From the NCBI RefSeq assembly GCF_009931435.1, contig NZ_CP043414.1: a DNA stretch of 64,000 nucleotides; one strand, written 5' to 3'. The stretch's first letter is position 1. Each line of letters begins with the position of its first letter. Source of the stretch: Escherichia coli (GTDB taxonomy: Bacteria; Pseudomonadota; Gammaproteobacteria; Enterobacterales; Enterobacteriaceae). The position numbers were made by a program, and so were the translations under genes. This document shows, piece by piece, positions 4,956-64,000 of the stretch. The notes below the pieces were generated by a model, which worked only from the letters and a program-made list of their open reading frames with translations, was not told where the DNA came from and did not search any database.

Positions 4956-5666
4956 CTACAGATTAATGATGAGATCCACGGCCTCAAATCGCCAATATTC
5001 AATATCTATCTGGACAATATTGCCTTGCTGGTCAGCGCGATGTTTTTCAATTAAGATCGCAGGCATGCCCGCTGAACCGCCAAGAAATTTACTGATATCA
5101 CCCGGCATTCTTACGGGTTTGAAAACCAGTTTTTTTACTACCGTCTCTTTTTGGTAGCATTTTTCCCAGACTGAAGAAAATGAGTGGTTTTCAAGTTGCT
5201 CTATAAAACCTGGGGCAACTTCAGGATTAATATATGTTTCGTGATAGAAAACTTTATGTCCTTCCAGCGCCCCCCAGCCGGTAATGCGATAGAGTTCAGT
5301 TGATGGCGTCACTGCAACCAGTGGCGCGAGCGTCTCGGGAATGTCGCTGGTACGGCTTTTCTCAGTAAAGCCCCAGGAAGGTTCCCGCCCTTGCTCAATT
5401 GCGGCCCGCTGAAAGCTCGCCGACAGCTCCGGACTGTAATTAAATCGCGGCTGAGTCACGAACCACCCTTTACGATCCTTACGGAAAATTTTGGATTCTG
5501 CCTCAAGGTTCAGCAACGCCTGGCGTAACGTCATACGTTTAATGCCCAGCAACTCTCCCAGCTCTCTTTCTGAAGGGAGTTTTCCACCCGGCGTGGTGAT
5601 GCCATCTTTCAACCACCGATCCAGTTTCTCTTTTGCATTTTCTACGGTGGATTGATTCTCCGCCAT
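4956..5666 (-). CDS. yihL: GntR-family transcriptional regulator
   Basis: 236-aa ORF with N-terminal wHTH (ERELGELLGIKRMTLRQAL); synteny. Confidence 0.85.
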   Translation of the reverse strand: MAENQSTVENAKEKLDRWLKDGITTPGGKLPSERELGELLGIKRMTLRQALLNLEAESKIFRKDRKGWFVTQPRFNYSPELSASFQRAAIEQGREPSWGFTEKSRTSDIPETLAPLVAVTPSTELYRITGWGALEGHKVFYHETYINPEVAPGFIEQLENHSFSSVWEKCYQKETVVKKLVFKPVRMPGDISKFLGGSAGMPAILIEKHRADQQGNIVQIDIEYWRFEAVDLIINL

Positions 5667-5832
5667 TGTTTAATCCTTTTGGTTTAAACCAGATGAGGCA
5701 TCTTACGCTTACGCCAAAAAAGAAAGCAATTAACAGCGTATGACTTTGCAGATAATTGTGACAAAGCTCTCTATTGACGTAACCACAAACTTATAAGGGA
5801 GATACTCGCACTGGTGAGAACTTACGACAGGC

Positions 5833-5865
5833 AAAAAAAAACCTGCCATCACTGGCAGGTTTTTT
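5833..5865 (-). terminator. rho-independent terminator downstream of typA (palindromic, potentially bidirectional)
   Basis: Hairpin cctgccatcactggcagg flanked by an A9 run and a T6 run. Confidence 0.6.
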
Positions 5866-5882
5866 ATGACTAAAAAACGAAA

Positions 5883-48404: not shown

Positions 48405-48444
48405 TTATCCCACAATATGAGACCTAGTTTATATTGTGGGATAA
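48405..48444. promoter_or_regulatory. perfect 14-bp inverted repeat, candidate operator
   Basis: ttatcccacaatat-N12-atattgtgggataa, 60-100 bp upstream of the IclR-family gene and about 120 bp upstream of divergent rmuC; no flanking U-run on either strand. Confidence 0.45.
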
Positions 48445-48503
48445 ATCACCTTTTCCCCACGTCATTATGTGGAACACTTCAGCAATATCATCAGGAGAAA
48501 CGT

Positions 48504-49271
48504 ATGGCAGATACCTCTTCAACCACCGCTGGCGCACAAACGTTATTACGCGGGCTCGCGGTTCTTAATGCTGTTTATAACGGCTGCCATGACCTGAAAA
48601 GTATCGGCGAGTTCACCGGCACGACCCGGAGCACAACCCATCGTTTAGTCACCGTTCTGGTGGAACAACGCTACCTGCGCCACGTCCCAACGCAGGGCTA
48701 CCAACTGGGCGCCAAACTGATCGAATTCGGTGCCAGAGCGCTGGAAAGCACCTCGCTGTACGAAGTTGCGCTGCCCGTTTTGCAACGCCTTGCCCGTTAC
48801 ACCCTGGACACCGTGCATCTGGGGATCGTTGAAGGCGACGAAGTGCTGTATCTGGAGAAGATCAACAGCCAGCGCGGGCTGGAAATGCGCTCACGCCCAG
48901 GCCATCGCATGCCACTGGCAATCACCGGCATCGGCAAGGCATTGATCCTCAACCGAACAGAAGAAGAGTGGCGCACGCTGTTTAAGACCTGTGGTGATGA
49001 AACAAAACTGGGCGCATTTATTCAGAACATGCGTCGTTATGCCGCGAGTGGTTTTGCTTTTGATCTGGAAGAGAACGAGCCGACTATCCGTTGCGTTGCA
49101 GCGCCGGTTTACAACGCCCGGGATGAAATTGTGGCGGCTATTTCTGTCGCCAGTACCACTACGTATATGTCACTGGCGCGTCTGGAAGAACTGGCACCTT
49201 ACGTCAAATCCTGTGCAGAAGAGATATCCGCTGAACTGGGCTGGGGTAAGCACGTCCGCAAAAATAAATAA
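48504..49271 (+). CDS. IclR-family transcriptional regulator
   Basis: Start chosen at MADTSSTTAGAQTLLRGLAVLNAV (aggag RBS); N-terminal wHTH plus C-terminal effector-domain pattern typical of IclR regulators. Confidence 0.8.
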   Translation: MADTSSTTAGAQTLLRGLAVLNAVYNGCHDLKSIGEFTGTTRSTTHRLVTVLVEQRYLRHVPTQGYQLGAKLIEFGARALESTSLYEVALPVLQRLARYTLDTVHLGIVEGDEVLYLEKINSQRGLEMRSRPGHRMPLAITGIGKALILNRTEEEWRTLFKTCGDETKLGAFIQNMRRYAASGFAFDLEENEPTIRCVAAPVYNARDEIVAAISVASTTTYMSLARLEELAPYVKSCAEEISAELGWGKHVRKNK

Positions 49272-49294
49272 ACCATGACTAAAGGAAACGGCTA

Positions 49295-50299
49295 ATGTCG
49301 GGAAACACCTCATTTATTGCCCTGGACTGGGGAACGTCATCGCTTCGGGCATGGCGTTTTGGCGATTCACCAAATCCACAAGAAAAACGTGAATTCCCGT
49401 GGGGGATCATGAAATTACCCTCCCAGGCAGCAACACGTGAGGACGCTTTCCACGATACGTTTTTACGTGTCTGCGGCGACTGGCTGGCACAATCCCCATG
49501 CCCGGTTCTGGCTTGCGGCATGATCGGCAGTGCGCAAGGGTGGCAACCCGCAGCTTATTTACCTTGCCCGGTCACTCTCGAGGGTCTGGCAAAGCAGTTG
49601 ACGCCTGTTATCCACCAGCAGCAGACAATGCTGCATATTATTCCTGGCGTGATTAAAGAAGGTGAAATGCCCGAAGTAATGCGTGGTGAAGAGACACAAA
49701 TCTTCGGTGCTATCTCGATGGAACCGGCCCTGCAAAACGCGATCCGCCAGGGTATGCCTGTGCTGATTGGCTTACCTGGCACACATGCGAAATGGGCGGT
49801 AGTTGAAAACAACACCATTACCGATTTCCGAACCTTTATGACTGGCGAGTTATTTGATGTTTTATCCCGCCATTCGATTCTCGGTGCCACCATGCGTTCG
49901 GGAGATGAACCGCACTGGGATGCCTTCACCCATGGGCTGACAGCAGCACAAGAGCATCATCAGACCGGATTATTATCGACGCTGTTTTCGACCCGTTCGC
50001 GCCTGCTGACCAGTAATCTTACGCCGTCCTCACAGGGGGATTACCTTTCAGGATTACTGATAGGCCATGAATTATGCGGTCTGGCATCCAGTTTGCTACG
50101 TGATTTACCCGCCACAACACCGATCGCCTTAATCGGTAGCGCCACTCTGAACAGCCGCTATTCACAAGCATTCAGCCACGTTTTTCCCGACAGACAGCTA
50201 CACGCCATTCCTAATGCCACTGAACAGGGGTTATGGCGAATCGCCCACGTTGCCGGGCTACTCTCCACCAACGCCAGGGAATGTACCCATGCCATTTAA
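49295..50299 (+). CDS. 2-dehydro-3-deoxygalactonokinase-like sugar-acid kinase (DgoK family)
   Basis: 334 aa; N-terminal IALDWGTSSLRAW and VMRGEETQIFGA / TGELFD..LS.HS.LGA / LSGLLIG motifs align with E. coli DgoK as I recall it. Confidence 0.8.
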   Translation: MSGNTSFIALDWGTSSLRAWRFGDSPNPQEKREFPWGIMKLPSQAATREDAFHDTFLRVCGDWLAQSPCPVLACGMIGSAQGWQPAAYLPCPVTLEGLAKQLTPVIHQQQTMLHIIPGVIKEGEMPEVMRGEETQIFGAISMEPALQNAIRQGMPVLIGLPGTHAKWAVVENNTITDFRTFMTGELFDVLSRHSILGATMRSGDEPHWDAFTHGLTAAQEHHQTGLLSTLFSTRSRLLTSNLTPSSQGDYLSGLLIGHELCGLASSLLRDLPATTPIALIGSATLNSRYSQAFSHVFPDRQLHAIPNATEQGLWRIAHVAGLLSTNARECTHAI

Positions 50300-50918
50300 T
50301 ACGCTTTTGCAAAAAACCGGGTTAGTCGCCATTTTACGCGGCGTGAAACCGGATGAGATTGTCGCCATCGGTGAAAAGCTGTATGCCGCTGGATTTCGCC
50401 TGATTGAGATTCCCATGAACTCGCCGGAGCCGTTGCAAAGTATCAGTTTACTGCGCGACGCCCTGCCTAAGGACTGCCTGGTCGGAGCCGGAACGGTGCT
50501 TTCGGTGGAGCAAGTCGTCGCGGTTAAAGAGGCTGGAGGCCAGATTATCGTGATGCCGCATTGCGATACTGCGGTGATCCGTCGTGCCCGTGCGCTGGGT
50601 ATGTATTGTGCGCCTGGCGTCGCTACGCCCACCGAAGCTTTTGCTGCCATTGAACATGGCGCCAATGCCATCAAGCTGTTCCCGGCTGAACAAATTACGC
50701 CTGAAGTCACCAAAGCCTGGCGTGCGGTTATTCCACAATCCGTTCCGATGTTACCGGTTGGCGGTATCACTCCAGACACAATGGCGCGTTATCTGAGCCA
50801 CGGCGCAAACGGCTTTGGCCTCGGTTCTGCGCTATATCGCCCCGGCATGACGCCAGAGCAAGTCTATGAAAATGCAGTACTGTTTATGAACGCATGGAAC
50901 AATTTAAATAGCAAATAA
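50289..50918 (+). CDS. 2-dehydro-3-deoxy-6-phosphogalactonate (KDPGal/KDPG) aldolase-like
   Basis: Start at MPFNTLLQKTGLVAILRG (209 aa), overlapping the kinase gene by 11 bp; AILRG...EIP.NSP...GAGTVL...GG(I/V)TP motifs of the Eda/DgoA family. Confidence 0.8.
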   Translation: MPFNTLLQKTGLVAILRGVKPDEIVAIGEKLYAAGFRLIEIPMNSPEPLQSISLLRDALPKDCLVGAGTVLSVEQVVAVKEAGGQIIVMPHCDTAVIRRARALGMYCAPGVATPTEAFAAIEHGANAIKLFPAEQITPEVTKAWRAVIPQSVPMLPVGGITPDTMARYLSHGANGFGLGSALYRPGMTPEQVYENAVLFMNAWNNLNSK

Positions 50919-50942
50919 CTGATAAATAAGGATATAAAAGCA

Positions 50943-51917
50943 ATGATAAAACATCTTACCTTACCGAAAAAAATGGCTGCAATGGTACTTCTTGCCGGCG
51001 CTGCCCTCAGCACTGCGCCTGTACAGGCGGCCTCCTGGCCAACCAAACAAATCGAGTTAGTCGTACCCTACGCGGCCGGAGGCGGTACGGACCTGGTTGC
51101 CCGAGCCTTTGCTGATGCCGCCAAAAACCATTTACCCGTCAGCATCGGGGTTATCAATAAACCTGGCGGTGGCGGCGCTATCGGCCTGAGTGAAATCGCC
51201 GCTGCCCGCCCTAACGGTTACAAAATGGGTTTAGGCACGGTTGAACTGACCACCCTTCCCAGCCTCGGAATGGTGCGTTTTAAAACCAGCGACTTTAAAC
51301 CCATTGCCCGTCTGAATGCGGATCCGGCGGCTATCACCGTCCGTGCCGATGCGCCGTGGAATAGCTATGAAGAATTTATGACTTACGCCAAAGCGAATCC
51401 CGGAAAAGTACGCATTGGTAACTCAGGCACCGGAGCAATCTGGCATCTGGCGGCAGCTGCACTGGAAGACAAAACGGGCGTGAAGTTTTCTCATGTCCCG
51501 TATGACGGCGCAGCCCCTGCCATTACAGGCCTGTTAGGCGGGCATATTGAAGCGGTTTCCGTAAGCCCAGGTGAAGTTATCAATCATGTGAAAGGCGGCA
51601 AGCTGAAGACACTGGTAGTGATGGCGGATGAACGTATGAAAACCATGCCTGACGTCCCGACGTTAAAAGAGAAAGGCGTTGATCTCTCCATCGGCACCTG
51701 GCGCGGCCTGATTGTGTCGCAAAAAACGCCGCAGGATGTGGTGGATGTGCTGGCAAAGGCAGCAAAAGAGACGGCTGAAGAGCCTGCATTCCAGGATGCA
51801 CTGCAAAAGTTGAATCTCAACTATGCATGGCTTGATGGTGCCAGCTTCCAGACCCAAATCAACGAGCAGGAAAAGTACTTTGACGAGCTTCTGACTCGCC
51901 TGGGCCTGAAAAAATAA
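50943..51917 (+). CDS. tctC: tripartite tricarboxylate transporter, periplasmic substrate-binding protein (TctC/Bug family)
   Basis: 324 aa; signal peptide then ASWPTKQIELVVPYAAGGGTDLVAR, typical Bug-family N-terminus. Confidence 0.8.
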   Translation: MIKHLTLPKKMAAMVLLAGAALSTAPVQAASWPTKQIELVVPYAAGGGTDLVARAFADAAKNHLPVSIGVINKPGGGGAIGLSEIAAARPNGYKMGLGTVELTTLPSLGMVRFKTSDFKPIARLNADPAAITVRADAPWNSYEEFMTYAKANPGKVRIGNSGTGAIWHLAAAALEDKTGVKFSHVPYDGAAPAITGLLGGHIEAVSVSPGEVINHVKGGKLKTLVVMADERMKTMPDVPTLKEKGVDLSIGTWRGLIVSQKTPQDVVDVLAKAAKETAEEPAFQDALQKLNLNYAWLDGASFQTQINEQEKYFDELLTRLGLKK

Positions 51918-51933
51918 TCCCGAGGTACGGTCG

Positions 51934-52440
51934 ATGAACACAAAACAGTCTGTTGCTCAACTCGCCGTACCGCACCGCAAGCGCCTTTCATCCACTGTGG
52001 TGGTGGCGCTGTTACTTTGTGTGGTTGCTGGCGCGGTGATAATTAATGCCGCTGATTTTCCAGCAACTGCCATTGAAACGGATCCCGGTGCAAGTGCCTT
52101 CCCTACTTTCTATGCCTGCGCTCTGATTGTGCTCGCTGTCTTACTGGTGATACGCGATCTTTTGCTGGCAAAACCAGTCCCTTGCGCCAACGCACAGGAA
52201 AAACCGGCATTAAGGAAAACGGCAACAGGAATTGCGGCAACCGCGTTTTATATTGTGGCGATGAGCTACTGCGGTTATCTCGTTACTACTCCTGTTTTCC
52301 TCATCGTCATTATGACGTTGATGGGCTACAGGCGATGGGTACTCACTCCGGGTATTGCGCTGCTGTTAACGGCAATCCTCTGGTTGCTGTTTGTCGAAGC
52401 GTTACAGGTGCCATTGCCTGTCGGCACATTTTTCGAATAA
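51934..52440 (+). CDS. tctB: tripartite tricarboxylate transporter small membrane subunit (TctB-like)
   Basis: 168-aa 4-TM protein between tctC-like and tctA-like genes. Confidence 0.7.
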   Translation: MNTKQSVAQLAVPHRKRLSSTVVVALLLCVVAGAVIINAADFPATAIETDPGASAFPTFYACALIVLAVLLVIRDLLLAKPVPCANAQEKPALRKTATGIAATAFYIVAMSYCGYLVTTPVFLIVIMTLMGYRRWVLTPGIALLLTAILWLLFVEALQVPLPVGTFFE

Positions 52441-52452
52441 CAGGGGCCTGCA

Positions 52453-53943
52453 ATGTTTGAAAGTGAACTTTTAACTCAGGGGTTTTCGACATTACTCAGT
52501 AATCCTCAGGCGCTGCTGTTTGCCACGTTTGGAGTGATGCTGGGTATTATGATTGGCGCTCTGCCTGGCCTGACAGCGACCATGGGTGTGGCGATTTTGC
52601 TGCCTTTCACCTACGGCATGGAGCCTGTTTCTGGCTTGTTGATGATTTGCGGTGTCTTTTTTGGTGGTGTGTATGGTGGTTCTATCACCGCAATTTTGCT
52701 CAAAATTCCCGGTACACCTGCCGCCGCTGCCACCGCCATTGACGGTTATGAGTTAACGAAGCAGGGAAAAGCCGGGCTGGCATTAAGTGCCGCCACGTTC
52801 TCTTCTTTTAGCGGTGGAACGCTCAGCATTATCGTATTGATGTTTCTCTCTCCGGTCCTTGCTAGTTGGGCGTTGAAATTTAGTGCCTCGGAGTCCTTCG
52901 CCCTGGCAACCTTCGGACTGAGCATTATTGCCAGTATTTCCGGTGAGTCGCTGATTAAAGGGCTGATCGCCGGGATTGGCGGATTAATGATCGCAACGAT
53001 AGGCCTCGATCCGATGGGCGGTTTTCCACGCTTTACGGGCGGGTTTGTGGAACTGATGAATGTGCCATTTATCCCGGTGATGATTGGTCTGTTTGCTGCT
53101 TCAGAAGCGTTCCGTTCTATGGAACAAAATCAGCATATTCGTCAGAGCGCGAACGTGGCTATCGGCAGTCTGTTACTGCCCTGGCAAACGCTACGCCGCA
53201 TCGCATTAACCATTTTGCGCTCATCAGGATTAGGGGTTTTTATCGGCATGATCCCCGGTGCGGGGGCAGATATTGCAGCTTTTGTTGCCTATAACGAAAC
53301 TCGTCGTTTCAGTAAGACGCCTGAAAACTTTGGTAAGGGTGAGATTAAGGCGGTGGCCTCCTGTGAGGCAGGCGCGAATGGCTGCACCGGTGGCGCATTG
53401 TTACCTATGCTGACGTTGGGGATCCCAGGCGATGCGGTAACTGCCATCATGCTGGGCGCGTTAACGTTACAAGGGATGCAGCCAGGCCCACTGATGTTTA
53501 CCGACCACGGCGATATGGTTTATACGTTATTTGTCGGCATGATCTTCTGTTACTTCATGCTGCTAGTTCTTGGACTGCTCTCTTTGAAAGTCATCGGTAA
53601 CGTGGTGAAAATTCCCGGCAATATTCTCACACCGATGATCCTCGCACTTTGTGTGGTCGGGACTTATGCGTTGAACAATAGCCTGTTTGATGTTGGCATT
53701 ATGCTGATTGCAGGCGTGGTGGGCTATTTCATGCAAAAAGGGGGATATCCGGCATCACCCGTAGTGCTGGCATTGATTATGGGGCCAATGGCGGAAAGTA
53801 ATTTTCGCCGTGCGCTGTCGCTTTCAGGGGGGTCACTCGACTTCCTGTATACCCGACCGATAACCCTGGCATTGCTGACACTGGCAGCCTTTACGCTACT
53901 GACGCCAATAATACGCAAAATTATGCGCTTACGGCGTCAGTAA
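52453..53943 (+). CDS. tctA: tripartite tricarboxylate transporter large permease subunit (TctA-like)
   Basis: 496-aa polytopic membrane protein with duplicated GxPGxxA / IPGxPA-type motifs. Confidence 0.85.
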   Translation: MFESELLTQGFSTLLSNPQALLFATFGVMLGIMIGALPGLTATMGVAILLPFTYGMEPVSGLLMICGVFFGGVYGGSITAILLKIPGTPAAAATAIDGYELTKQGKAGLALSAATFSSFSGGTLSIIVLMFLSPVLASWALKFSASESFALATFGLSIIASISGESLIKGLIAGIGGLMIATIGLDPMGGFPRFTGGFVELMNVPFIPVMIGLFAASEAFRSMEQNQHIRQSANVAIGSLLLPWQTLRRIALTILRSSGLGVFIGMIPGAGADIAAFVAYNETRRFSKTPENFGKGEIKAVASCEAGANGCTGGALLPMLTLGIPGDAVTAIMLGALTLQGMQPGPLMFTDHGDMVYTLFVGMIFCYFMLLVLGLLSLKVIGNVVKIPGNILTPMILALCVVGTYALNNSLFDVGIMLIAGVVGYFMQKGGYPASPVVLALIMGPMAESNFRRALSLSGGSLDFLYTRPITLALLTLAAFTLLTPIIRKIMRLRRQ

Positions 53944-55179: not shown

Positions 55180-55989
55180 ATGGCAACAACACAACAATCT
55201 GGATTTGCACCTGCTGCATCACCTCTCGCTTCGACCATCGTTCAGACCCCGGATGACGCGATTGTAGCAGGCATCACCTCTATCCCTTCACAAGGGGATA
55301 ACATGCCTGCTTACCATGCCAGACCAAAGCAGAGCGATGGCCTACTACCAGTGGTCATTGTAGTGCAGGAAATTTTTGGCGTGCATGAACATATCCGCGA
55401 TATTTGTCGCCGTCTGGCGCTGGAGGGGTATCTGGCTATCGCACCTGAACTTTACTTCCGCGAAGGCGATCCGAATGATTTTGCCGATATCCCTACGCTG
55501 CTTAGCGGTCTGGTAGCAAAAGTGCCTGACTCGCAGGTGCTGGCCGATCTCGATCATGTCGCCAGTTGGGCGTCACGCAACGGCGGCGATGTTCATCGCT
55601 TAATGATCACCGGATTTTGCTGGGGTGGGCGCATCACCTGGCTGTATGCTGCGCATAATCCACAACTGAAAGCAGCGGTGGCATGGTACGGCAAATTAAC
55701 CGGCGATAAGACGCTGAATTCACCGAAACAACCTGTTGATATCGCAACCGATCTTAACGCTCCGGTTCTCGGCTTATATGGCGGCCAGGATAACAGCATT
55801 CCGCAGGAGAGCGTTGAAACCATGCGCCAGGCGCTGCGGGCTGCTAATGCGAAAGCAGAGATTATCGTCTACCCGGATGCCGGGCATGCATTCAACGCCG
55901 ATTATCGCCCGAGCTATCATGCCGAATCTGCGAAAGATGGCTGGCAGCGAATGCTGGAGTGGTTTAAGCAGTATGGTGTTAAAAAGTAA
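55180..55989 (+). CDS. ysgA: dienelactone hydrolase family protein
   Basis: Start chosen at MATTQQSGFAPAAS (269 aa); alpha/beta hydrolase with nucleophile motif ITGFCWGG. Confidence 0.9.
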   Translation: MATTQQSGFAPAASPLASTIVQTPDDAIVAGITSIPSQGDNMPAYHARPKQSDGLLPVVIVVQEIFGVHEHIRDICRRLALEGYLAIAPELYFREGDPNDFADIPTLLSGLVAKVPDSQVLADLDHVASWASRNGGDVHRLMITGFCWGGRITWLYAAHNPQLKAAVAWYGKLTGDKTLNSPKQPVDIATDLNAPVLGLYGGQDNSIPQESVETMRQALRAANAKAEIIVYPDAGHAFNADYRPSYHAESAKDGWQRMLEWFKQYGVKK

Positions 55990-56245
55990 CGCCATAGCCG
56001 CTAAATCTGATGATTAAGCTCACACAATTTCAACGATTTTTTTAATCTCAAAACCATACAGCATCAAAAAATTTGTTGCTGTATGCCACTCTTTGACTCC
56101 CTTCACATTCGTCATCACACCACCTGTTGAATGCAAAAATTTCGTTGCTGTGCGGCAAACTTTTTTCCTGTTTTATGCCGCTTTTCTCCTGAATACTCGC
56201 TCTCAGAACAACTGGATCGTTTAAACATCAGACAGGAGATTTACC

Positions 56246-56914
56246 ATGACGCAATCCATTTTTCAGGCTCAACCCTTTGAATTACCTTTTGATCCGCGCA
56301 CAACTGCACTGGTCATGATCGACATGCAGCGTGACTTTGTCGAAGCAGGGGGCTTCGGTGAGGCACTGGGCAATGATGTTTCACTGGTACGCACGGCTAT
56401 CGCACCATGTACAGAGGTGCTGGCAGCCGCACGTCAAAAAGGAATTATGGTTATTCATACTCGTGAAGGCCATCGTGCAGACTTAAGCGACTGCCCGCCA
56501 GCCAAACTGACGCGCGGCGGAAAAACCTTTATTGGTGAACCAGGACCGATGGGACGCATTCTGGTCAGAGGTGAAGCGGGTCATGACATCATTCCTGAAC
56601 TGTACCCAGTGACAGGCGAACCGGTGATTGATAAGCCCGGTAAAGGCGCTTTTTATCAAACCGACTTACATCTGATTTTGCAAAACCACGGTATCAAGAC
56701 GCTGATAGTTTGTGGTGTAACAACCGAAGTTTGCGTAACCACCACCGTGCGCGAAGCAAATGACCGTGGCTATGAATGCATTATCCCGGAAGATTGTGTC
56801 GGCTCATATTTCCCGGAATTCCAGAAATATGCCCTCGAGATGATCAAAGCACAAGGTGCCATTTTCGGTTGGGTGAGTGATTCCAAAGCCATTATTGCAG
56901 GTCTGGAAGGCTAA
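56246..56914 (+). CDS. isochorismatase-family cysteine hydrolase (RutB/BiuH-like amidohydrolase)
   Basis: 222 aa; D-K-C triad context (ALVMIDMQRDF, DKPGKGAF, VCGVTTEVC) and a C-terminal FGWVSDS block resembling RutB as I recall it. Confidence 0.75.
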   Translation: MTQSIFQAQPFELPFDPRTTALVMIDMQRDFVEAGGFGEALGNDVSLVRTAIAPCTEVLAAARQKGIMVIHTREGHRADLSDCPPAKLTRGGKTFIGEPGPMGRILVRGEAGHDIIPELYPVTGEPVIDKPGKGAFYQTDLHLILQNHGIKTLIVCGVTTEVCVTTTVREANDRGYECIIPEDCVGSYFPEFQKYALEMIKAQGAIFGWVSDSKAIIAGLEG

Positions 56915-56919
56915 CGCCG

Positions 56920-57780
56920 ATGGTACAGGTGACGCTTTGCGCATCATCGTTGGGATATCTTTTCCCGCAAAATGAAACGCAAGATTTACGTCTGCATAGT
57001 GCTTTTAAACATGCGGTAAATCTGTATTCAGAAGCGGGAACATTCATCACTCTGTTGTGTGCGCAAACGTATCTGAATCTCCCTGATGCCGCCAGAGTCA
57101 ACCTGCCTGAGAATTGGGACTGGCGAAGAGAGATTGCCCATTCAGATCCCATTCAGTTAACCCCAGGCTTGTTACAAACACCTCGCTTTTGCGTGGTGCT
57201 TCATAACACAACACTTTGGCAACCGCCATTTGTGGGGGGAATGCTGACACTTGAGGCATTCCCTTTGGTTTTCCAGCACTACCCAACGATGGCATCGCAA
57301 CGGCTTTTATTTTGTCTGGAGCATAACGTTCAAAGCACATTGCACCTGCCGGATAGTCTCACGCACCAGGGATTAGCGATTATGGAACATCCAGATGCAC
57401 TGGAACGCCAGGTGCCACAACTGATCGGCTTTGGTAAAGGCTTAACGCCCGATGGAGATGACTATTTGTTGGGCTATCTGGCAGCGCTCTGGTTATGGCA
57501 ACTCCCTGCAACACTTGCCGATCATCAATACCGGTTGCAGCAGGCAATTGATCAACATGCGCACAACACCACGGATATCAGTCGTCATTATCTGGAGCGT
57601 GCGCTTCAGGGGCATTTTTCAGAACCGATTTGCCAGTTACTCGCACAACTGGTTGGGGGCGCATCGGAAATGACAATCGCATCCTGTGCAGAACAGGTCA
57701 TGCAATTTGGCGCAACGTCAGGAGTAGATTGCCTTGCAGGAATGCTGCATGGCTTTCGAACCCTGAACACCATGAATTGA
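56920..57780 (+). CDS. DUF2877-like protein (YlbF/YahE-like putative carbamoyltransferase subunit)
   Basis: 286 aa, 6 bp after the hydrolase gene; GFGKGLTPDGDDYLLG motif; assignment to DUF2877 is from memory of the LTPxGDD signature and the conserved position next to FdrA-like/DUF1116 genes. Confidence 0.55.
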   Translation: MVQVTLCASSLGYLFPQNETQDLRLHSAFKHAVNLYSEAGTFITLLCAQTYLNLPDAARVNLPENWDWRREIAHSDPIQLTPGLLQTPRFCVVLHNTTLWQPPFVGGMLTLEAFPLVFQHYPTMASQRLLFCLEHNVQSTLHLPDSLTHQGLAIMEHPDALERQVPQLIGFGKGLTPDGDDYLLGYLAALWLWQLPATLADHQYRLQQAIDQHAHNTTDISRHYLERALQGHFSEPICQLLAQLVGGASEMTIASCAEQVMQFGATSGVDCLAGMLHGFRTLNTMN

Positions 57781-57874
57781 TTTCAACCTTTTCTCCCGTA
57801 GCCCATTTATGGCGCTACACGGGGATGCTTTGCCCGAATTTTGCTATCGGGCGGAATAAAACAGGCGTAACAGC

Positions 57875-59434
57875 ATGAAAGTTAAATATAAAGTTTTCAG
57901 CAATCTTTATCAGGACTCGGTTTCTCTGATGCAGATTTCCGCGCAAATCAGTAAGTTGCCCGGTATTCAACAGGCCTCGGTCGTCATGGGAACACCCAAT
58001 AATCTCGAACAATTGCGCGATGCGGGTCTGGGTAACGAAATCAACGCCAGTCCCAATGATTTAGTGATTGCAGTCATGGGTGAAGAAGATATTTGCAATG
58101 AAGCACTGATACTGGCCCAGCAACGTCTGACCAGCAAACCCGATGATGAAACGGATAGTGGCATTAAAACACCGGAAAATGTCAGCCTGGAAATGGCACT
58201 GGAAGCCGACACCGAAGCCAACCTGGCACTCATTTCTGTACCGGGAGACTACGCCGCCGCCGAAGCAATTAAAGCGTTAAACCTCGGAATGAACGTGATG
58301 ATGTTCAGCGATAACGTCAGTATCGGGCAGGAAAAATCCATCAAAACACTTGCCCGAGAACGTCAGCGCATCGTAATGGGACCTGATTGTGGAACCGCCA
58401 TTGTTAACGGCATTCCGTTAGGCTTCGCTAATGTGGTGAAACGCGGAGCAATTGGTGTTATTGGCGCGTCAGGCACCGGGCTACAGGAAGTGACTTGCCG
58501 AATCGACCAGCTCGGAGCGGGTATTTCTCAGGCGTTGGGAACAGGCGGGCATGATCTCAGTGAAGAGATTGGTGGAATATCGATGCTCTTCGCTTTAGAT
58601 GCGCTGGCGCAAGACGATGAAACTCGCGTGATTGTGCTTATTTCAAAACCGCCTTCACCGATCGTTGCCCGGGCTATTCTGGAGCGCGCCGAGGCTTGTG
58701 GAAAACCCGTGGTGGTGAATTTCCTCGGTGCGAATCCGCATGATCTGGCACGTCCCAATATCACCGCTGCCGCCACACTTGCCAGCGCCGCAAATATCGC
58801 CGTGGCAGTACTGAATGATCAGCCACTTCCGACTGTCGAGACCGAGATTTCCTGCGACGATCTCACAATGTTACAAAACGCCTGCCAGCGTCTGCCAGCC
58901 CATCGCCAGGCGATACGCGGTGTTTTCGCCGGAGGAACCTTCTGTTACGAAGCGCAACTTATCTGCCAGCAAAAGGGATTCAGCGCCGCCTCCAATACGC
59001 CAGTTGCGGGTAATCGTACTCTGGCAAATATCTGGCAAAGCAAAGGTCACACGCTGATCGATATGGGCGACGATGATTTCACCCGTGGCAAACCGCATCC
59101 AATGATCGACCCGACTCTGCGCAATCAACGTCTGCTCAACGAACTCAACGACTCACACACTGCCGTCGTGTTATTCGACCTGGTACTTGGTTATGGCGCT
59201 TCCGCTACGCCTGCCAGCGAATTACTGGACCAACTTTCACACATCGACATGAATAACGCACCGTTGCTGATTGCGCACGTTTGCGGAACGGAAGCTGATC
59301 CGCAAATACGCAGTCAGCAGATAAGCGCACTACAAAATGCGGGCATCATCATTGCCAGCAGCAATGCACAGGCGGCGCTATGGGCCAGCGCCGTTGCGCA
59401 GACTCAGTTGCAGAAAAAGGGGCTAAACGCATGA
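57875..59434 (+). CDS. FdrA-like protein (CoA-binding/succinyl-CoA-synthetase-like fold)
   Basis: 519 aa; N-terminus YQDSVSLMQISAQISKLPGIQQASVVMGTPNN aligns with E. coli FdrA; internal NVMMFSDNV, MGPDCGT and VIGASGTG motifs. Confidence 0.8.
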   Translation: MKVKYKVFSNLYQDSVSLMQISAQISKLPGIQQASVVMGTPNNLEQLRDAGLGNEINASPNDLVIAVMGEEDICNEALILAQQRLTSKPDDETDSGIKTPENVSLEMALEADTEANLALISVPGDYAAAEAIKALNLGMNVMMFSDNVSIGQEKSIKTLARERQRIVMGPDCGTAIVNGIPLGFANVVKRGAIGVIGASGTGLQEVTCRIDQLGAGISQALGTGGHDLSEEIGGISMLFALDALAQDDETRVIVLISKPPSPIVARAILERAEACGKPVVVNFLGANPHDLARPNITAAATLASAANIAVAVLNDQPLPTVETEISCDDLTMLQNACQRLPAHRQAIRGVFAGGTFCYEAQLICQQKGFSAASNTPVAGNRTLANIWQSKGHTLIDMGDDDFTRGKPHPMIDPTLRNQRLLNELNDSHTAVVLFDLVLGYGASATPASELLDQLSHIDMNNAPLLIAHVCGTEADPQIRSQQISALQNAGIIIASSNAQAALWASAVAQTQLQKKGLNA

Positions 59435-60855
59435 ATACCTTATTTAATCAGCCTTTGAAGGTCGTGAACGCGGGACTACACAGTTTTGCTGACAATATTC
59501 AACATGCCGGGGGAAGCGCAATTGCACTCAACTGGCAGCCACCAGCACAAGGCGATATTGACGCTGGATTGGATCTGGCATCGTTGCTACGTCATCCACT
59601 AGTAGAAAATGCCAATCAAATCGCCATGACACGTTATCTCGAAGCACAACCCGTGCTGGTGGATGTCATGCTCGCTAAAGAGGCCATTCCAGCAATGGCT
59701 GAACAAAAACGTATTTTGCACTCTGGTCCGCCGATTGCCTGGGAAGAGATGTGTGGTCCGGTAAAAGGGGCGATTATTGGTGCCATGCTGTACGAAGGTT
59801 GGGCCACCAGCCAGCAAGACGCTGAAAACCAGATAAACACAGGCGAAATCGACCTTGCCCCTTGTCATCATTATCACGCGGTTGGACCAATGGCAGGCAT
59901 CATCAGCCCGTCGATGCCGTTATGGGTGGTAGAAAACAAAACCAACGGCCACCGTACTTTTAGCAATTTCAATGAAGGTCTGGGTAAGGTTCTCCGTTTT
60001 GGTGCCAATAACGATGAAGTTCTCAATCGTCTGGCCTGGATGCGCGATGAACTGGCACCGGCAATGAAAGCAGCAATCGCACAACACGGCGAGCTGGAAC
60101 TCAAGCCATTAATGGCGCAGGCGCTGCATATGGGGGATGAAGTTCATAACCGCAATGCTGCCGCTACCGGTTTGCTGATTAAGCGCCTGCTCCCGGCATT
60201 GCTGGCCTGCTCTATTCCACAGGAACATATCCAGCGCGTCGTGGCATTTATCACCAGTAACGATCACTTCTTCCTCAATCTGTCGATGGCTGCCTGTAAA
60301 GCGATGATGGATGCCGCCGCCAATGTACCGTTCAGTTCAATGGTTACGGTGATGGCGCGTAACGGGGTGAATTTTGGTATTCGGCTTTCCGGTACTGGCG
60401 ATCGCTGGTTCCAGGCTCCTGCCAATGCAGTTGAAGGTCTGTTCTTCCCCGGATTTGGCGTCGACGATGCCGCTGCTGACCTGGGTGATAGCGCAATTAC
60501 CGAAACCGCAGGTGTGGGTGGCTTCGCGATGGCGTCATCTCCAGCGATCGTCAAATTTGTGGGAGGCACCCCTGCCGATGCCACCAATAACAGCCGTAGG
60601 ATGCAAGCAATCACCCTCGGTGGTAACCCCGCATTTACACTTCCTGCCCTCAATTTTGCCCCCACCGCAGCAGGGATTGATGCGCGTAAAGTGACCGATC
60701 GCGGCATTTTACCGGTCATCAATACGGGTATCGCCCACAAACAAGCGGGGGTCGGGCAAATTGGTGCCGGGATCACCACTGCGCCGATGGCCTGTTTTGT
60801 CGCCGCTGTACGTGCACTGTCTGAGATCGTCGCAAAGGAGAACCATCATGGTTAA
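59431..60855 (+). CDS. DUF1116-family protein (YlbE/YahG-like)
   Basis: Start at MNTLFNQPLKV, overlapping the FdrA-like stop (ATGA); 474 aa; family call from memory. Confidence 0.7.
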   Translation: MNTLFNQPLKVVNAGLHSFADNIQHAGGSAIALNWQPPAQGDIDAGLDLASLLRHPLVENANQIAMTRYLEAQPVLVDVMLAKEAIPAMAEQKRILHSGPPIAWEEMCGPVKGAIIGAMLYEGWATSQQDAENQINTGEIDLAPCHHYHAVGPMAGIISPSMPLWVVENKTNGHRTFSNFNEGLGKVLRFGANNDEVLNRLAWMRDELAPAMKAAIAQHGELELKPLMAQALHMGDEVHNRNAAATGLLIKRLLPALLACSIPQEHIQRVVAFITSNDHFFLNLSMAACKAMMDAAANVPFSSMVTVMARNGVNFGIRLSGTGDRWFQAPANAVEGLFFPGFGVDDAAADLGDSAITETAGVGGFAMASSPAIVKFVGGTPADATNNSRRMQAITLGGNPAFTLPALNFAPTAAGIDARKVTDRGILPVINTGIAHKQAGVGQIGAGITTAPMACFVAAVRALSEIVAKENHHG

Positions 60856-61804
60856 GCCACTGGCTGTTGTCGCAGTTGGCGGCAATGCGCTCATTCAGGA
60901 CGAGCAACGCAATAGTATTCCCGATCAATATGTTGCAGTGATGGAAAGCGTGCAGCATATCGTTGATATGGTTGAAGCCGGATGGGACCTGGTGCTTACC
61001 CACGGTAATGGCCCGCAGGTGGGCTTTATTCTGCGCCGCTCTGAACTCGCCAGTAACGAAGTTTCTCCGGTTCCACTTGATTACGCCGTGGGTGATACAC
61101 AAGGTGCAATTGGCTACATGTTCCAGAAAGCGCTGCATAACGAATTGGCTCGCCGTGGCATAAACAAACCGGTAATTGCGCTGGTGACACAAACGCGAGT
61201 CTGCCCACATGACGATGCTTTCACCAGCCCCAGTAAACCGATTGGCGCGTTTCTCGATGAAGCAACGGCCCTACAACGCCAACAGCAACTCGGCTGGACG
61301 CTGATGGAGGACGCCGGGCGTGGTTGGCGGCGTACAGTTCCCTCTCCTGCGCCACTGGAAATTATTGAGCACGACACCATCGCTCACCTGGTGCGCCAGG
61401 GATATCTGGTTATTGCCTGCGGCGGTGGCGGTATTCCGGTGGTGCGAGACGGACAACAACTGAAAGGTGTGGAAGCCGTGATCGATAAAGATCTGGCCTC
61501 CGCGCTGCTCGCCAGTCAGTTAGGCGCAGATCTGCTGGTGATCCCCACCGGTGTAGAAAAAGTGGCGATTAACTTTGGTACACCACAACAACAGTGGCTC
61601 GACGCTATCAGCGTTGCCGAAGCGCAAACGCTGTTACGGGAAGGTCAGTTTGGTGTCGGCAGTATGCAGCCCAAAGTGGAAGCCATTGTTGATTTCATCA
61701 ATGCCAGCCAACAACAAGGCAAACAGGCCAGCGGCCTGATTACTTCACCGCAAACCATAAAAGCAGCCCTTTCGCATCAGAGCGGCACATGGATAACCCT
61801 TTAA
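60848..61804 (+). CDS. carbamate kinase
   Basis: 318 aa; VVAVGGNAL and THGNGPQVG amino-acid-kinase motifs; 8-bp overlap with the upstream gene. Confidence 0.85.
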   Translation: MVKPLAVVAVGGNALIQDEQRNSIPDQYVAVMESVQHIVDMVEAGWDLVLTHGNGPQVGFILRRSELASNEVSPVPLDYAVGDTQGAIGYMFQKALHNELARRGINKPVIALVTQTRVCPHDDAFTSPSKPIGAFLDEATALQRQQQLGWTLMEDAGRGWRRTVPSPAPLEIIEHDTIAHLVRQGYLVIACGGGGIPVVRDGQQLKGVEAVIDKDLASALLASQLGADLLVIPTGVEKVAINFGTPQQQWLDAISVAEAQTLLREGQFGVGSMQPKVEAIVDFINASQQQGKQASGLITSPQTIKAALSHQSGTWITL

Positions 61805-61820
61805 TTCTCTGGAGAACTCA

Positions 61821-62210
61821 ATGACTACAACACTTTTAGCCGTTAACGGAACGCTGATGCGTGGCCTGGAACTCAACCCAAATATGCAAAAAGCGGGCGG
61901 CATTTTTGTCCGTGAAGACCGAACTGACGCCCATTACAGGTTGTGGAGTATTAACGATCGTCATCCGGGAATGATTCGCGTGAATGAAGGAGGAACACAC
62001 GTCGACGTAGAAATTTGGCAATTACCACTGACCAGTTTTGCCGCTCTGTTAATGAGCGAACCCGCTGGGCTGGCAATTGGCAAAATCAAACTTGCCGATG
62101 GTAGCGAAGTGCTGGGCGTACTGGCAGAAAACTGGCTGACCGAAGGCCAACGGGAAATTACAGAACTGGGTAGCTGGCGCAAATACACCGGGCATTTTCA
62201 TACTGTGTAA
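61821..62210 (+). CDS. small cytoplasmic protein of unknown function (possibly GGCT/AIG2-like or allophanate-hydrolase C-terminal-domain-like)
   Basis: 129 aa, no TM segment; NGTLMRG near the N-terminus weakly resembles the YGSL(x)RG motif of gamma-glutamyl cyclotransferase-like folds. Confidence 0.45.
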   Translation: MTTTLLAVNGTLMRGLELNPNMQKAGGIFVREDRTDAHYRLWSINDRHPGMIRVNEGGTHVDVEIWQLPLTSFAALLMSEPAGLAIGKIKLADGSEVLGVLAENWLTEGQREITELGSWRKYTGHFHTV

Positions 62211-62235
62211 CGCGCATTTTTAAAGGGAACATACT

Positions 62236-63459
62236 ATGCGTAAAAAAGAAGAGAATCTGAATACAGCATCAGGATTGCGTATTGCCATGATTTTACTGGG
62301 TATTGCCGTCACACCTGTGCTGTTGTCATCCTCAAGCCTCGGCAATCAACTTTCCAGCGGCAGTTTAATTAGCGTCGTATTGTTAGGCGGCGTCATTCTG
62401 ACCTTACTTTCAGCCATCACCATTAGCGTGGGAGAAAAAGCCCGCCTGCCAACGTATGGCATTGTGAAATATTCGTTTGGCGAAAAAGGGGCCATCGCCA
62501 TTAACATTTTGATGGCGATAAGTCTGTTCGGCTGGATTGCCGTTACCGCCAATATGTTTGGTCATTCGGTACATGACTTACTGGCTCAACATGGACTGGA
62601 AGTTCCACTAGCACTGTTAGTGGCTGCTGGCTGTGTCATTTTTGTCGCCTCTACAGCATTTGGTTTTGCCGTTCTGGGAAAAATTGCCCAGGTTGCCGTG
62701 CCGGTTATCGCGCTGGTGCTGTGTTACATCCTCTATGTGGCAACCCATACCGAAGTGGCAGCACCAGCGGTGATTGTGGAGATGAATACGGGTGTCGCTG
62801 TTTCCACCGTTGTTGGCACCATTATTGTGCTGGTTGCCACACTGCCTGATTTCGGTAGTTTTGTGCATAACCGCAAACATGCGCTGATTGCCGCAGGCGT
62901 GACGTTTCTGGTTGCCTACCCTCTGCTCTACTGGGCGGGAGCAACGCCGAGCGCCATTAGTGGTCAGGGATCTTTACTGGGTGCGATGGCGGTATTCGGT
63001 GCGGTTCTGCCCGCGGCGCTGTTGTTGATTTTCGCCTGCGTCACCGGTAACGCGGGCAATATGTTCCAGGGCACGCTGGTGGTTTCCACACTGCTTACCC
63101 ACTTTCCCAAATGGCAGATTACCGTGGCGCTGGGTATCCTTTCCGCCATCGTAGGCAGTCTGGATATTATGGCGTGGTTTATTCCGTTTCTGCTGTTCCT
63201 GGGTATCGCCACGCCACCCGTTGCCGGAATTTATATCGCTGACTTTTTCCTTTATCGCCGTAATGGCTATCAAGAGTCAGTGTTAGCCCAGGAGTCACAG
63301 ATCAAAGTGCTGACATTCGCAGCATGGATCATAGGTGCAGCGGTTGGCTTTATGACCGTAAAAGGCTTATTCACCCTGACGACAATCCCTTCGGTAGACT
63401 CGATTCTGGTGGCATGTATCGCGTATGCGATTCTCAGTCGGGCAAGTCAACGCCGCTAA
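62236..63459 (+). CDS. NCS1-family nucleobase permease (CodB-like)
   Basis: 407-aa polytopic protein; C-terminal ATPPVAGIYIADFFLYRRNG resembles CodB AIPPVGGVIIADYLMNRR. Confidence 0.8.
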   Translation: MRKKEENLNTASGLRIAMILLGIAVTPVLLSSSSLGNQLSSGSLISVVLLGGVILTLLSAITISVGEKARLPTYGIVKYSFGEKGAIAINILMAISLFGWIAVTANMFGHSVHDLLAQHGLEVPLALLVAAGCVIFVASTAFGFAVLGKIAQVAVPVIALVLCYILYVATHTEVAAPAVIVEMNTGVAVSTVVGTIIVLVATLPDFGSFVHNRKHALIAAGVTFLVAYPLLYWAGATPSAISGQGSLLGAMAVFGAVLPAALLLIFACVTGNAGNMFQGTLVVSTLLTHFPKWQITVALGILSAIVGSLDIMAWFIPFLLFLGIATPPVAGIYIADFFLYRRNGYQESVLAQESQIKVLTFAAWIIGAAVGFMTVKGLFTLTTIPSVDSILVACIAYAILSRASQRR

Positions 63460-63536
63460 TTCCTGGGTATACTCAGGCAATGATTACGGCTGAATCTGGA
63501 GAGATTCAGCCACTTTACCACTGACCAGGGAGCCTT

Positions 63537-64000
63537 ATGTTCATCTCAGACGAAACGCTTCGTGTTATTCATCTGGTCGCCAGACACCAGAGCATTACCA
63601 CCGCAGCCGAACAGTTAAATAAAGTCCCTTCCGCCATCAGTTACACCATCAAGAAAGTGGAAGAGAGCCTGGGCGTTGAACTGTTCATTCGTAAGGGACG
63701 CTATATTGAATTATCTCCGGCGGGGAGTTACTTCATCGAACATAGCAAAACTATTCTGGGCGACCTGGAAGCATTAAAGCGCAACACAGTGCTGATTCAC
63801 GATGGTATTGAACGTGAACTGACAATTGCGGTGAACAATATTATTCCTGGTGATTTGCTGGTGGCATTTATTCGAGATTTTGAACGGCAATTCACATCAA
63901 CAACACTGACGGTAGATCTTGAGGTATACAACGGCTGCTGGGATGCGCTGTACAGTAAGCGTGCTGATCTGGTCTACGGTGCTCCTCATGCAGTGCCAAG
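63537..64000 (+). CDS. LysR-family transcriptional regulator, 5' part (continues beyond window)
   Basis: N-terminal HTH (LRVIHLVARHQSITTAAEQLNKVPSAISYTIKKVEESLGVELF); not MetR by sequence. Confidence 0.8.
   Translation, partial: MFISDETLRVIHLVARHQSITTAAEQLNKVPSAISYTIKKVEESLGVELFIRKGRYIELSPAGSYFIEHSKTILGDLEALKRNTVLIHDGIERELTIAVNNIIPGDLLVAFIRDFERQFTSTTLTVDLEVYNGCWDALYSKRADLVYGAPHAVP

Follow-up and report, generated by a model that had tools for sequence, protein, structure and literature searches.

The stretch analysed here (64,000 nucleotides of the Escherichia coli contig NZ_CP043414.1, referred to as the window) carries near its end an eight-gene operon in which a TrtA-type cysteine hydrolase is joined to three AllH/AllF/AllG-like proteins, a carbamate kinase, a free-standing AH_C protein, an NCS1-family permease and a LysR-type regulator. 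Breakdown of triuret with gain of ATP is the best explanation that we can offer for this operon; we put it at close to even chances, and every substrate and product in it is one that we infer. The observations from which it starts are the homologies of the encoded proteins, the invariance of the operon, the TrtA signature of the hydrolase and a near-exclusive pairing of TrtA with either of two partner sets.

Three carbamoyltransferase-type genes and a kinase gene are the core of a mobile operon

A preliminary description of this DNA had reported a module of four co-directional genes at 56920-61804. All four open reading frames are present on the plus strand with the expected product sizes (286, 519, 474 and 318 amino acids (aa)), and the same four genes are annotated by the NCBI Prokaryotic Genome Annotation Pipeline (PGAP) in near-identical E. 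coli genomes. The core genes of the module thus stand and its boundaries do not: the functional unit has eight genes and extends from 56246 to beyond 64000. Its features are:

55990..56245, + strand: putative upstream control region of the operon, from sequence reading and cross-genus conservation
56246..56914, + strand: TrtA-type isochorismatase-like cysteine hydrolase, 222 aa, predicted triuret hydrolase
56920..57780, + strand: AllH-like subunit (DUF2877 / Pfam PF11392), 286 aa
57781..57874, + strand: AllH-AllF spacer, 94 nucleotides (nt), with two hairpins (~57792-57825 and ~57829-57855)
57875..59434, + strand: AllF-like subunit (FdrA family, succinyl-CoA-synthetase-alpha-like), 519 aa
59431..60855, + strand: AllG-like subunit (DUF1116 / PF06545), 474 aa, from the ATG at 59431
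60848..61804, + strand: catabolic-type carbamate kinase, 318 aa, from the ATG at 60848
61821..62210, + strand: free-standing AH_C protein (homologue of the allophanate hydrolase C-terminal domain, Pfam AH_C), 129 aa
62236..63459, + strand: NCS1-family permease, annotated as 'cytosine permease', 407 aa
63537..64000, + strand: LysR-type regulator, N-terminal 154 codons, running past the end of the window

The genes are closely packed. The hydrolase gene ends 5 nt upstream of the AllH-like gene, and the gaps downstream of the carbamate kinase gene are 16 nt to the AH_C gene, 25 nt to the permease gene and 77 nt to the LysR gene; a Shine-Dalgarno-like motif precedes every start. Both overlaps that had been named as signs of translational coupling can be read from the sequence: an ATGA at 59431 (ATG 59431-33, TGA 59432-34) and an overlap of 8 base pairs (bp) at 60848 (ATG 60848, TAA 60853-55).

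The eight-gene block is inserted between ysgA and metE, where K-12 has nothing; in the PGAP annotation of near-identical genomes the LysR gene encodes about 298 aa and is followed by metE. Between 54000 and 64000 the window shares 99.4% identity with E. coli strain R32_14_1F and about 97.5% with many others. When loci of E. coli, Citrobacter (two loci), Edwardsiella, Serratia, Limnobaculum, Caballeronia, two metagenome contigs and one plasmid were compared, the order hydrolase-AllH-AllF-AllG-kinase-AH_C-NCS1(-LysR) was the same in all of them and the flanking genes differed in each; the LysR gene follows the permease gene in seven of the nine copies that are from other organisms or from the plasmid. 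We read the four genes as the core of an eight-gene catabolic operon that moves horizontally (the cassette), and we are all but sure of its anatomy and of its status as a third lineage beside the two related gene sets of K-12. Linkage to a different hydrolase and a different transporter, pointed out in the preliminary description, is conserved across genera, and because of this the suggestion that the catalytic scaffold is reused for another carbamoylated substrate is supported. As candidate substrates, the series triuret / carboxybiuret / allophanate can be singled out.

The cysteine hydrolase resembles triuret hydrolase

Compared with proteins of known structure, the hydrolase matches TrtA (6XIX, E = 3e-79, 269 bits) and BiuH (6AZO, E = 5e-70, 239 bits), with a far weaker match to RutB (8BKD, E = 2e-29, 106 bits). 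It scores 279.6 bits with the NCBIfam equivalog model of BiuH (NF050097), below the cutoff of 370, and 113 bits with the RutB equivalog model (TIGR03614, cutoff 378). The catalytic triad is present (D26/K130/C163), as are F31, E74, K133, T159 and Q203, which include the substrate-binding Phe, Glu, Lys and Gln. Six positions separate more than 500 TrtA and BiuH sequences by consensus, namely F35, N41, A134, E160, Y187 and I205 in TrtA versus Y, Y, S, D, T and V in BiuH (PMC7948467). The window protein has the TrtA-specific residue at all six (F37, N43, A135, E161, Y188, I206) and the BiuH-type residue at none; all eight cassette orthologues also have the six TrtA-specific residues, and the BiuH control reads YYSDTV. 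Within the cassette the hydrolases form a sub-clade with 83-92% identity among themselves and 58% to TrtA. By every sequence test applied the enzyme is TrtA-like and it is predicted to be a triuret hydrolase; triuret is probably the entry substrate of the operon.

The product that TrtA forms from triuret, 1-carboxybiuret, turns into biuret with a half-life of ~20 min (PMC7948467). In the hydrolytic pathway TrtA-(TrtB)-BiuH-AtzF of Herbaspirillum sp. BH-1 and Rhizobium leguminosarum (PMC7948467, PMC5806882) the first enzyme shares with the cassette hydrolase the triad, the substrate-binding residues and the six TrtA-specific second-shell residues, and the expected end products, NH3 and CO2, are the same. 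The canonical trtA-biuH-atzF context is, however, not found in the window, which has no BiuH-type gene, no second hydrolase of the TrtA/BiuH clade and no amidase domain: of AtzF only the C-terminal domain is there, as a separate protein. For the steps that follow the hydrolase, phosphorolysis with a yield of ATP is predicted.

TrtA-type genes have two largely alternative sets of partners

Metagenome contigs were scanned with an alignment of TrtA, BiuH and cassette hydrolases, and the best 80 loci were taken. All 80 have the TrtA signature (FN[A/S]EYI) and are 64-99% identical to the E. coli hydrolase; where these loci have a second hydrolase copy, it shows the BiuH signature YYSDTV and 75-79% identity to BiuH of Rhizobium. 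In canonical loci, TrtA-signature proteins 66-71% identical to the window hydrolase are encoded 2-6 kilobases (kb) from BiuH-signature proteins. Since copies of both kinds reside together, the signature separates the two enzymes within single loci. For the 39 TrtA loci of at least 5 kb, the partners were as follows (Fisher's exact test, p = 0.014):

TrtA with AllF/AllG (usually also carbamate kinase and AH_C), without BiuH or AtzF: 15 loci
TrtA with BiuH and/or full-length AtzF, without AllF/AllG: 10 loci
TrtA with both partner sets: 1 locus
TrtA with neither partner set: 13 loci

TrtA has, accordingly, two largely alternative downstream partner sets, AllF/AllG and BiuH/AtzF.

Two further loci extend the theme. 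In L015 (7395-11428, on a high-GC metagenome contig) AllF- and AllG-like genes come immediately after the gene for a ring-opening amidohydrolase (AtzD/barbiturase family), and in the flanks retrieved neither an AllH-like gene nor a carbamate kinase gene could be seen. Its AllG is 60% identical to the window AllG-like protein and nests inside the TrtA-linked clade. The amidohydrolase gene is split by an apparent assembly frameshift in a run of G; after frameshift correction the product scores 389 with the NCBIfam AtzD model (cutoff 360). The product of AtzD is 1-carboxybiuret, as is that of TrtA, and the product of barbiturase is ureidomalonate, its CH2 isostere. Judged from its sequence, the amidohydrolase may be a convergent feeder, which would support a substrate of the carboxybiuret type. 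The other locus, L017 on a low-GC contig, has a TrtA-like hydrolase with four of the six signature residues, a short AllH, AllF, AllG and a carbamate kinase and is a distant recurrence of the theme of hydrolase, AllHFG and kinase. Collocation of biuH or trtA with allFGHK has also been described for ammonia-oxidising archaea and comammox Nitrospira, some of the archaea having codB in addition; the authors read biuH/trtA and 'allFGHK' as separate pathways (PMC12625717).

Most environmental loci have, adjoining the TrtA-type gene, a gene for a polytopic membrane protein of ~530 aa (L068 10723-12318; also L085, L093, L094, L082, L050, L027, L029 and L043). It has no NCBIfam match and is 37-43% identical to two membrane proteins that flank the TrtA-like gene in L017 (1711-3216 and 3876-5399). 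This protein is a candidate triuret permease, whose place would be taken by the NCS1 permease in the E. coli cassette.

The AllH/AllF/AllG-like proteins and the kinase form a third lineage

Resemblance of the four genes to the K-12 sets yahE-yahF-yahG-yahI and fdrA-ylbE-ylbF-ybcF had been noted in the preliminary description. Alignment by blastp to the K-12 proteins of NC_000913.3 confirmed homology far beyond chance (E from 1e-151 to 9e-9). The 519-aa protein is 42% identical to YahF (E = 7e-119) and 41% to FdrA/AllF (E = 1e-104), the 474-aa protein 46% to YahG (E = 2e-151) and 48% to YlbE/AllG (E = 3e-139), the 318-aa protein 48% to YahI (E = 1e-83) and 38% to YbcF/AllK (E = 1e-56), and the 286-aa protein 25% to YahE (E = 1e-12) and 33%, over 110 aa, to YlbF/AllH (E = 9e-9). 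The NCBIfam FdrA model NF004760 gives the 519-aa protein 495 bits (cutoff 433), and the 318-aa protein passes both the arcC model TIGR00746 (362.3, cutoff 358.25) and PRK12352 (373.5, cutoff 266). Pfam domains of the orthologous loci are AllH, HMA_AllF_N/Ligase_CoA, AllG and AA_kinase. With separate AllF, AllG and AllH genes together and a carbamate kinase gene adjacent, the set belongs to the family of AllFGH-type carbamoyltransferases.

That the cassette is a third paralogue set, as had been proposed, agrees with identity matrices and with a neighbour-joining tree. Among the cassettes of Citrobacter, Edwardsiella, Serratia, Limnobaculum, Caballeronia and the two metagenome contigs, identities are 78-86% for AllG, 66-77% for AllF, 39-59% for AllH and 69-85% for the carbamate kinase; to either K-12 set they are ~47%, ~41%, ~24% and 40-50%, respectively, and a distance just as large lies between the two K-12 sets. 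In the neighbour-joining tree of AllG-like proteins, which has no support values, the window protein groups with the AllGs of TrtA-type loci, apart from K-12 AllG and YahG. Judged by these comparisons, the cassette is a third lineage that is about equidistant from both K-12 sets and not a recent copy of one.

The K-12 system with known biochemistry consists of AllF-AllG-AllH and AllK: the purified complex interconverts oxalurate and carbamoyl phosphate plus oxamate, and AllK then makes ATP (PMC11326118, PMC9843812). The oxamate carbamoyltransferase activity, which the preliminary description had called 'proposed', has thus been measured with purified AllF-AllG-AllH (PMC11326118). The cassette has the same three families, an adjacent carbamate kinase gene and tight or overlapping genes, and presumably the same chemistry, in which a ureide and phosphate give carbamoyl phosphate and an amide, and then ATP. 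However, the K-12 proteins are paralogues and not orthologues (AllG 48%, AllF 41% and AllH ~27% identity), the gene order is H-F-G-K in the cassette and F-G-H-K in the all cluster (fdrA-ylbE-ylbF-ybcF), and the partners in the cassette are a TrtA-type hydrolase, AH_C and an NCS1 permease, with no allantoin genes. The cassette is also accessory and mobile (29% of genomes, and plasmids), whereas allFGHK is core (99.6%).

These differences bear on the possibility that the cassette encodes a redundant oxamate carbamoyltransferase, a second oxalurate route from allantoin, as the PGAP name 'oxamate carbamoyltransferase subunit AllH family' might imply. Three subunits and a carbamate kinase of the right families would suit such an enzyme, but they are 24-48% identical to AllFGH, as distant as they are from the uncharacterised Yah set; 99.6% of genomes already have allFGHK; no allantoin or ureidoglycolate genes (allECD) lie in or beside the cassette in the loci examined; and its conserved partners are the TrtA-type hydrolase and AH_C. 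Neither orthology to AllF/AllG/AllH nor linkage to allantoin genes, expected of an oxamate carbamoyltransferase proper (EC 2.1.3.5), was found, and we consider this role very unlikely.

In layout the cassette is more like the uncharacterised K-12 set yahE-yahF-yahG-(yahH)-yahI-yahJ, with which it shares the order H-F-G-kinase, as the preliminary description had it, similar sizes and a LysR regulator nearby (yahB). Identities to this set are 22-25% for AllH, 42% for AllF, 47% for AllG and 49% for the kinase. In place of the cysteine hydrolase, AH_C and permease of the cassette, the yah genes are accompanied by the amidohydrolase-superfamily protein YahJ and an ankyrin protein. There is no spacer between yahE and yahF, which overlap; in the cassette the conserved ~94-nt spacer with its two hairpins stands between the AllH- and AllF-like genes.

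Features of the three subunits

The suggestion that the three proteins form a stoichiometric complex gains support from AllF-AllG fusions, from a terminal segment that belongs to different subunits in different sets and from conserved overlaps. Single-chain AllF-AllG fusions of ~1000 aa are common among family representatives (for example L016 8-3079). A segment of ~40-55 residues is the C-terminus of K-12 FdrA/AllF (L003 15681-17348) and the N-terminus of YahG and of the window AllG-like protein (59431-59560), residues 6-42 of which align to the FdrA profile at its C-terminal end. In most orthologous loci the AllF and AllG genes share the 4-bp overlap.

The AllH-like protein has two invariant loops, GxGxGLTPxGDD (57427-57462) and GxSSGxD (57709-57729); its AlphaFold model has a predicted local distance difference test score (pLDDT) of 93.7, and no relative of the model was found in the PDB. 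The AllG-like protein matches 3CLQ (E = 2e-120). In the AllF-like protein, the motif GDDDFTxGxPHPMIDPTLRNQ (59066-59128) is a candidate for the catalytic site because it is near-identical in all three paralogue lineages, and the His in GTGG-H-DL (58538-58558) is a candidate specificity position because it is found throughout the cassette lineage only, with Arg in its place in AllF and YahF.

The AllF-like protein matches FdrA (3DMY, E = 2e-84) and, with E values of 1e-12 and weaker, the alpha chains of succinyl-CoA synthetases. Around the phosphohistidine of succinyl-CoA synthetase the alignment with AllF is unreliable, and no equivalent of that residue is proposed. This homology and the current database name could be taken to mean that the FdrA-like protein is an acyl-CoA synthetase and that the cluster activates an organic acid. 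Yet the sole biochemistry of the family is carbamoyl transfer and not CoA ligation (PMC11326118), no partner of the succinyl-CoA synthetase beta/ATP-grasp type and no gene of a CoA pathway is linked, and linkage to a carbamate kinase is constant; activation of an organic acid is an explanation with hardly any probability left to it.

The AH_C protein and the permease

The AH_C gene is present in every cassette copy. Its product aligns only to positions 472-595 of the 600-position allophanate hydrolase profile; it is essentially the same protein as 5C5Z (E = 6e-85), an uncharacterised structural-genomics entry, and is related to the C-domain of the allophanate hydrolase 4GYR (E = 9e-12). A tblastn search of the window with full AtzF gave as sole match AtzF residues 486-605, with no amidase domain anywhere in the window. 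The protein is thus no allophanate hydrolase (AtzF/DUR1,2 AH), as it has the C-terminal domain only. Decarboxylation of an N-carboxy compound is the role proposed for this domain of allophanate hydrolase. Identity of AH_C with TrtB, the carboxybiuret decarboxylase, was considered and found no support: the small open reading frames between trtA and biuH in canonical loci include no AH_C-like match. Free-standing AH_C genes are also found apart from AllF/AllG: on two short contigs a pair of carbamate kinase and AH_C genes flanks TrtA, downstream in L037 and upstream in L044.

The permease is kept in all cassette copies and its orthologues carry the Pfam domain Transp_cyt_pur. With 146 bits against a cutoff of 326 for the CodB equivalog model NF008241, its similarity is at the level of the NCS1 family and it is not a CodB equivalog.

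A putative phosphorolytic route from triuret to ammonia and ATP

Triuret is a nitrogen-rich oxidation product of uric acid. In the route that we propose, the NCS1 permease would import triuret (carbonyldiurea) or a very close analogue, and the TrtA-type hydrolase would cleave one terminal amide to give 1-carboxybiuret and NH3. The AllH/AllF/AllG-like complex would then move the terminal carbamoyl group of 1-carboxybiuret to phosphate, yielding carbamoyl phosphate and allophanate, and would probably repeat this on allophanate to yield carbamoyl phosphate and carbamate. Carbamate kinase would convert carbamoyl phosphate and ADP to ATP and carbamate, which decays to NH3 and CO2. The AH_C protein is assumed, by analogy with the allophanate hydrolase domain, to speed the decarboxylation of an N-carboxy intermediate, and the LysR protein would control the operon. 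The net effect would be a phosphorolytic, ATP-yielding substitute for the hydrolytic route of BiuH and AtzF.

The specific carbamoyl-transfer steps are proposed tentatively, with chances somewhat under one half. They follow from an analogy: oxalurate, 1-carboxybiuret and allophanate are all anionic N-carbamoyl amides, and the complex may treat carboxybiuret like oxalurate. The likeness of AllF to succinyl-CoA synthetase alpha would fit acyl-phosphate chemistry, as succinyl-CoA synthetase forms an acyl phosphate by phosphorolysis. The broader statement, that E. coli (especially extraintestinal pathogenic E. coli (ExPEC), avian pathogenic E. coli (APEC) and strains with poultry plasmids) and other Proteobacteria have an unrecognised phosphorolytic triuret/1-carboxybiuret/allophanate route that yields ATP and ammonia, is plausible, but we would bet slightly against it.

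Several points weigh against triuret breakdown. The two partner sets are not fully exclusive, as L066 has AllFG and AtzF together, and the metagenome sample is small, with many short contigs and with related contigs that are not independent. NCS1 permeases usually transport nucleobases, hydantoins or allantoin, and the route presumes that E. coli meets triuret in nature. The choice of carboxybiuret as substrate is drawn from the analogy with AllFGH and not from substrate determinants of AllF/AllG/AllH. The role assigned to AH_C, also by analogy, is the weakest step, and a free-standing AH_C gene lies beside a BiuH-signature hydrolase gene in L057 (~5080-6584, minus strand), a contig on which no full-length AtzF was detected. 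Identity of the hydrolase to TrtA (58%) is little higher than that to BiuH (54%). The amidohydrolase of L015 matches a barbiturase structure best (398 versus 267 bits), which for some members of the clade would suggest a ureide derived from pyrimidines. A literature search found no paper that links the cassette to triuret. The TrtA signature comes from one characterised enzyme and a published consensus, and generalist BiuH enzymes exist (PMC7948467); comammox clusters combine biuH, atzF and allFGHK (PMC12625717).

Some of these points are shared by a serious alternative, in which the substrate is not triuret but another ureide, either derived from pyrimidines (ureidomalonate, ureidoacrylate or a barbiturate-related compound; compare 'GR 29', PMC12928451) or an unknown N-acylurea that the nucleobase-type permease would import. 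It would suit a permease of the cytosine/purine/hydantoin NCS1 family, the clade member L015 with its neighbouring enzyme most like barbiturase, the low-GC relative L017, which ends with a uracil phosphoribosyltransferase gene, and a hydrolase in a sub-clade of its own (83-92% within, 58% to TrtA). It is difficult to reconcile with the scores of the hydrolase (269 bits with TrtA and 239 with BiuH, only 106 with RutB, and 113 against the cutoff of 378 for the RutB equivalog), with the six TrtA-specific residues that are kept in every copy, with the position of its closest metagenomic relatives in canonical trtA-biuH-atzF loci, and with a cassette that has no RutA-type monooxygenase, uracil dehydrogenase or barbiturase. 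We regard another ureide as rather unlikely, but it is the strongest of the rivals considered. As the leading explanation, the pyrimidine/Rut reading (PMC12928451) was rejected on the family scores, and the cassette has no other rut-like gene.

A variant that keeps triuret places the cut at biuret: 1-carboxybiuret would lose CO2, spontaneously or via AH_C, and the AllHFG-like complex would then phosphorolyse biuret to carbamoyl phosphate and urea. Carboxybiuret does decarboxylate, with a half-life of ~20 min (PMC7948467), the window has no BiuH that would otherwise consume biuret, and the domain to which AH_C is related has been assigned the decarboxylation of an N-carboxy compound. On the other hand, urea would be a dead end in urease-negative hosts (most E. 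coli, Edwardsiella), with half of the nitrogen wasted, and a ureide with a carboxylate is the substrate of the only family member that has been characterised (PMC11326118). In the literature on the cyanuric acid pathway, biuret is treated as a dead end to be avoided (PMC6219798). A biuret cut therefore appears improbable. That pathway, AtzD-AtzEG-AtzH-AtzF of Pseudomonas sp. ADP, is like the proposed route in that it has to handle 1-carboxybiuret without loss to biuret and ends at allophanate, but it employs amidase-signature hydrolases and an NTF2-like decarboxylase and gives neither carbamoyl phosphate nor ATP (PMC6219798).

Distribution and significance of the cassette

The cassette is present in 1555 of 5426 complete E. 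coli genomes, compared with 5407 for allFGHK and 5001 for yahEFGI, and its carriers almost always hold the two other sets too. An allele of the eight-gene cassette with 90-95% identity is found on 82 conjugative plasmids of PLSDB (78 from E. coli and 4 from Klebsiella), many of them from poultry or chickens. In the one plasmid copy in which the surroundings were examined for insertion sequences, on plasmid p2 of E. coli EC13 (L019 7001-15179), the cassette lies near eitD, is bracketed by IS66, IS3 and IS1 and is followed by a cytochrome b562 gene. A scan of genome contigs with the AllH-like protein alone returned three loci, too closely related to be informative.

The existence of this copy in ExPEC/APEC is already known, without a function: the APEC O1 tkt1 island was described as including this region, its genes bearing yahE/F/G-like and hypothetical labels (PMC3349570), and in strain BEN2908 the region was named 'GR 29' and linked, speculatively, to the breakdown of pyrimidines (PMC12928451). 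The tkt1 part of the APEC O1 island is absent from the window. A literature search by the APEC O1 locus tags had the island description of 2012 as sole match. Nor did the searchable literature yield any mention of the conserved operon structure, of the hydrolase as a TrtA, of an either/or relation to BiuH/AtzF or of the proposed phosphorolytic pathway.

It was not until 2024 that genes were assigned to the AllFGH-type carbamoyltransferase, which has one known substrate and, in E. coli, two further copies that lack an assigned role; the gene context described here turns an 'unknown paralogue' into a concrete, testable hypothesis. If it is true, triuret, carboxybiuret and allophanate would be degraded in a new way, by phosphorolysis with substrate-level gain of ATP and not by hydrolysis, and the AllFGH family would have a second, chemically defined class of substrates. 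The family would follow a general rule, by which a feeder hydrolase is combined with an N-acylurea:phosphate carbamoyltransferase and with a carbamate kinase, the collocation of biuH or trtA with 'allFGHK' in ammonia oxidisers would be explained, and an island long used as a marker region of ExPEC/APEC would acquire a metabolic function. The cassette is found on large conjugative plasmids, many of them from poultry with their uric-acid-rich excreta; an ecological tie between the two is speculation.

Non-coding regions and a second accessory block

The region upstream of the hydrolase gene (55990-56245) contains two TCACA boxes and two direct repeats of ~17 nt (AAAAATTTnGTTGCTGT, near 56063 and 56134), and its blocks are kept in Citrobacter, Edwardsiella, Serratia, Limnobaculum, a metagenome contig and the plasmid copy. 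These repeats and boxes may be binding sites for the LysR-type regulator. A sigma-70 consensus scan gave no match on the plus strand of this region; sites found in scans with sigma-70 and terminator consensus sequences were no commoner than in shuffled sequence and none was usefully placed. An Rfam scan of 55900-64000 returned only two sub-threshold matches at chance level, therefore no riboswitch.

The hairpins of the AllH-AllF spacer are kept, by alignment and folding, in the Citrobacter, Edwardsiella and plasmid copies. Seven of their 18 pairs are changed on both sides in at least one enterobacterial copy, with a z-score of only -1.9, and they may serve in RNA processing or stability, or in attenuation.

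A second accessory block lies at 48417-53943 of the window, between rmuC and udp, which we take to be adjacent in K-12. Besides an IclR regulator and a tripartite tricarboxylate transporter (TctC/B/A), its genes specify a kinase like 2-dehydro-3-deoxygalactonokinase and a protein like KDPGal aldolase; the block is present in 1452 of the 5426 complete E. coli genomes, a frequency near that of the cassette.

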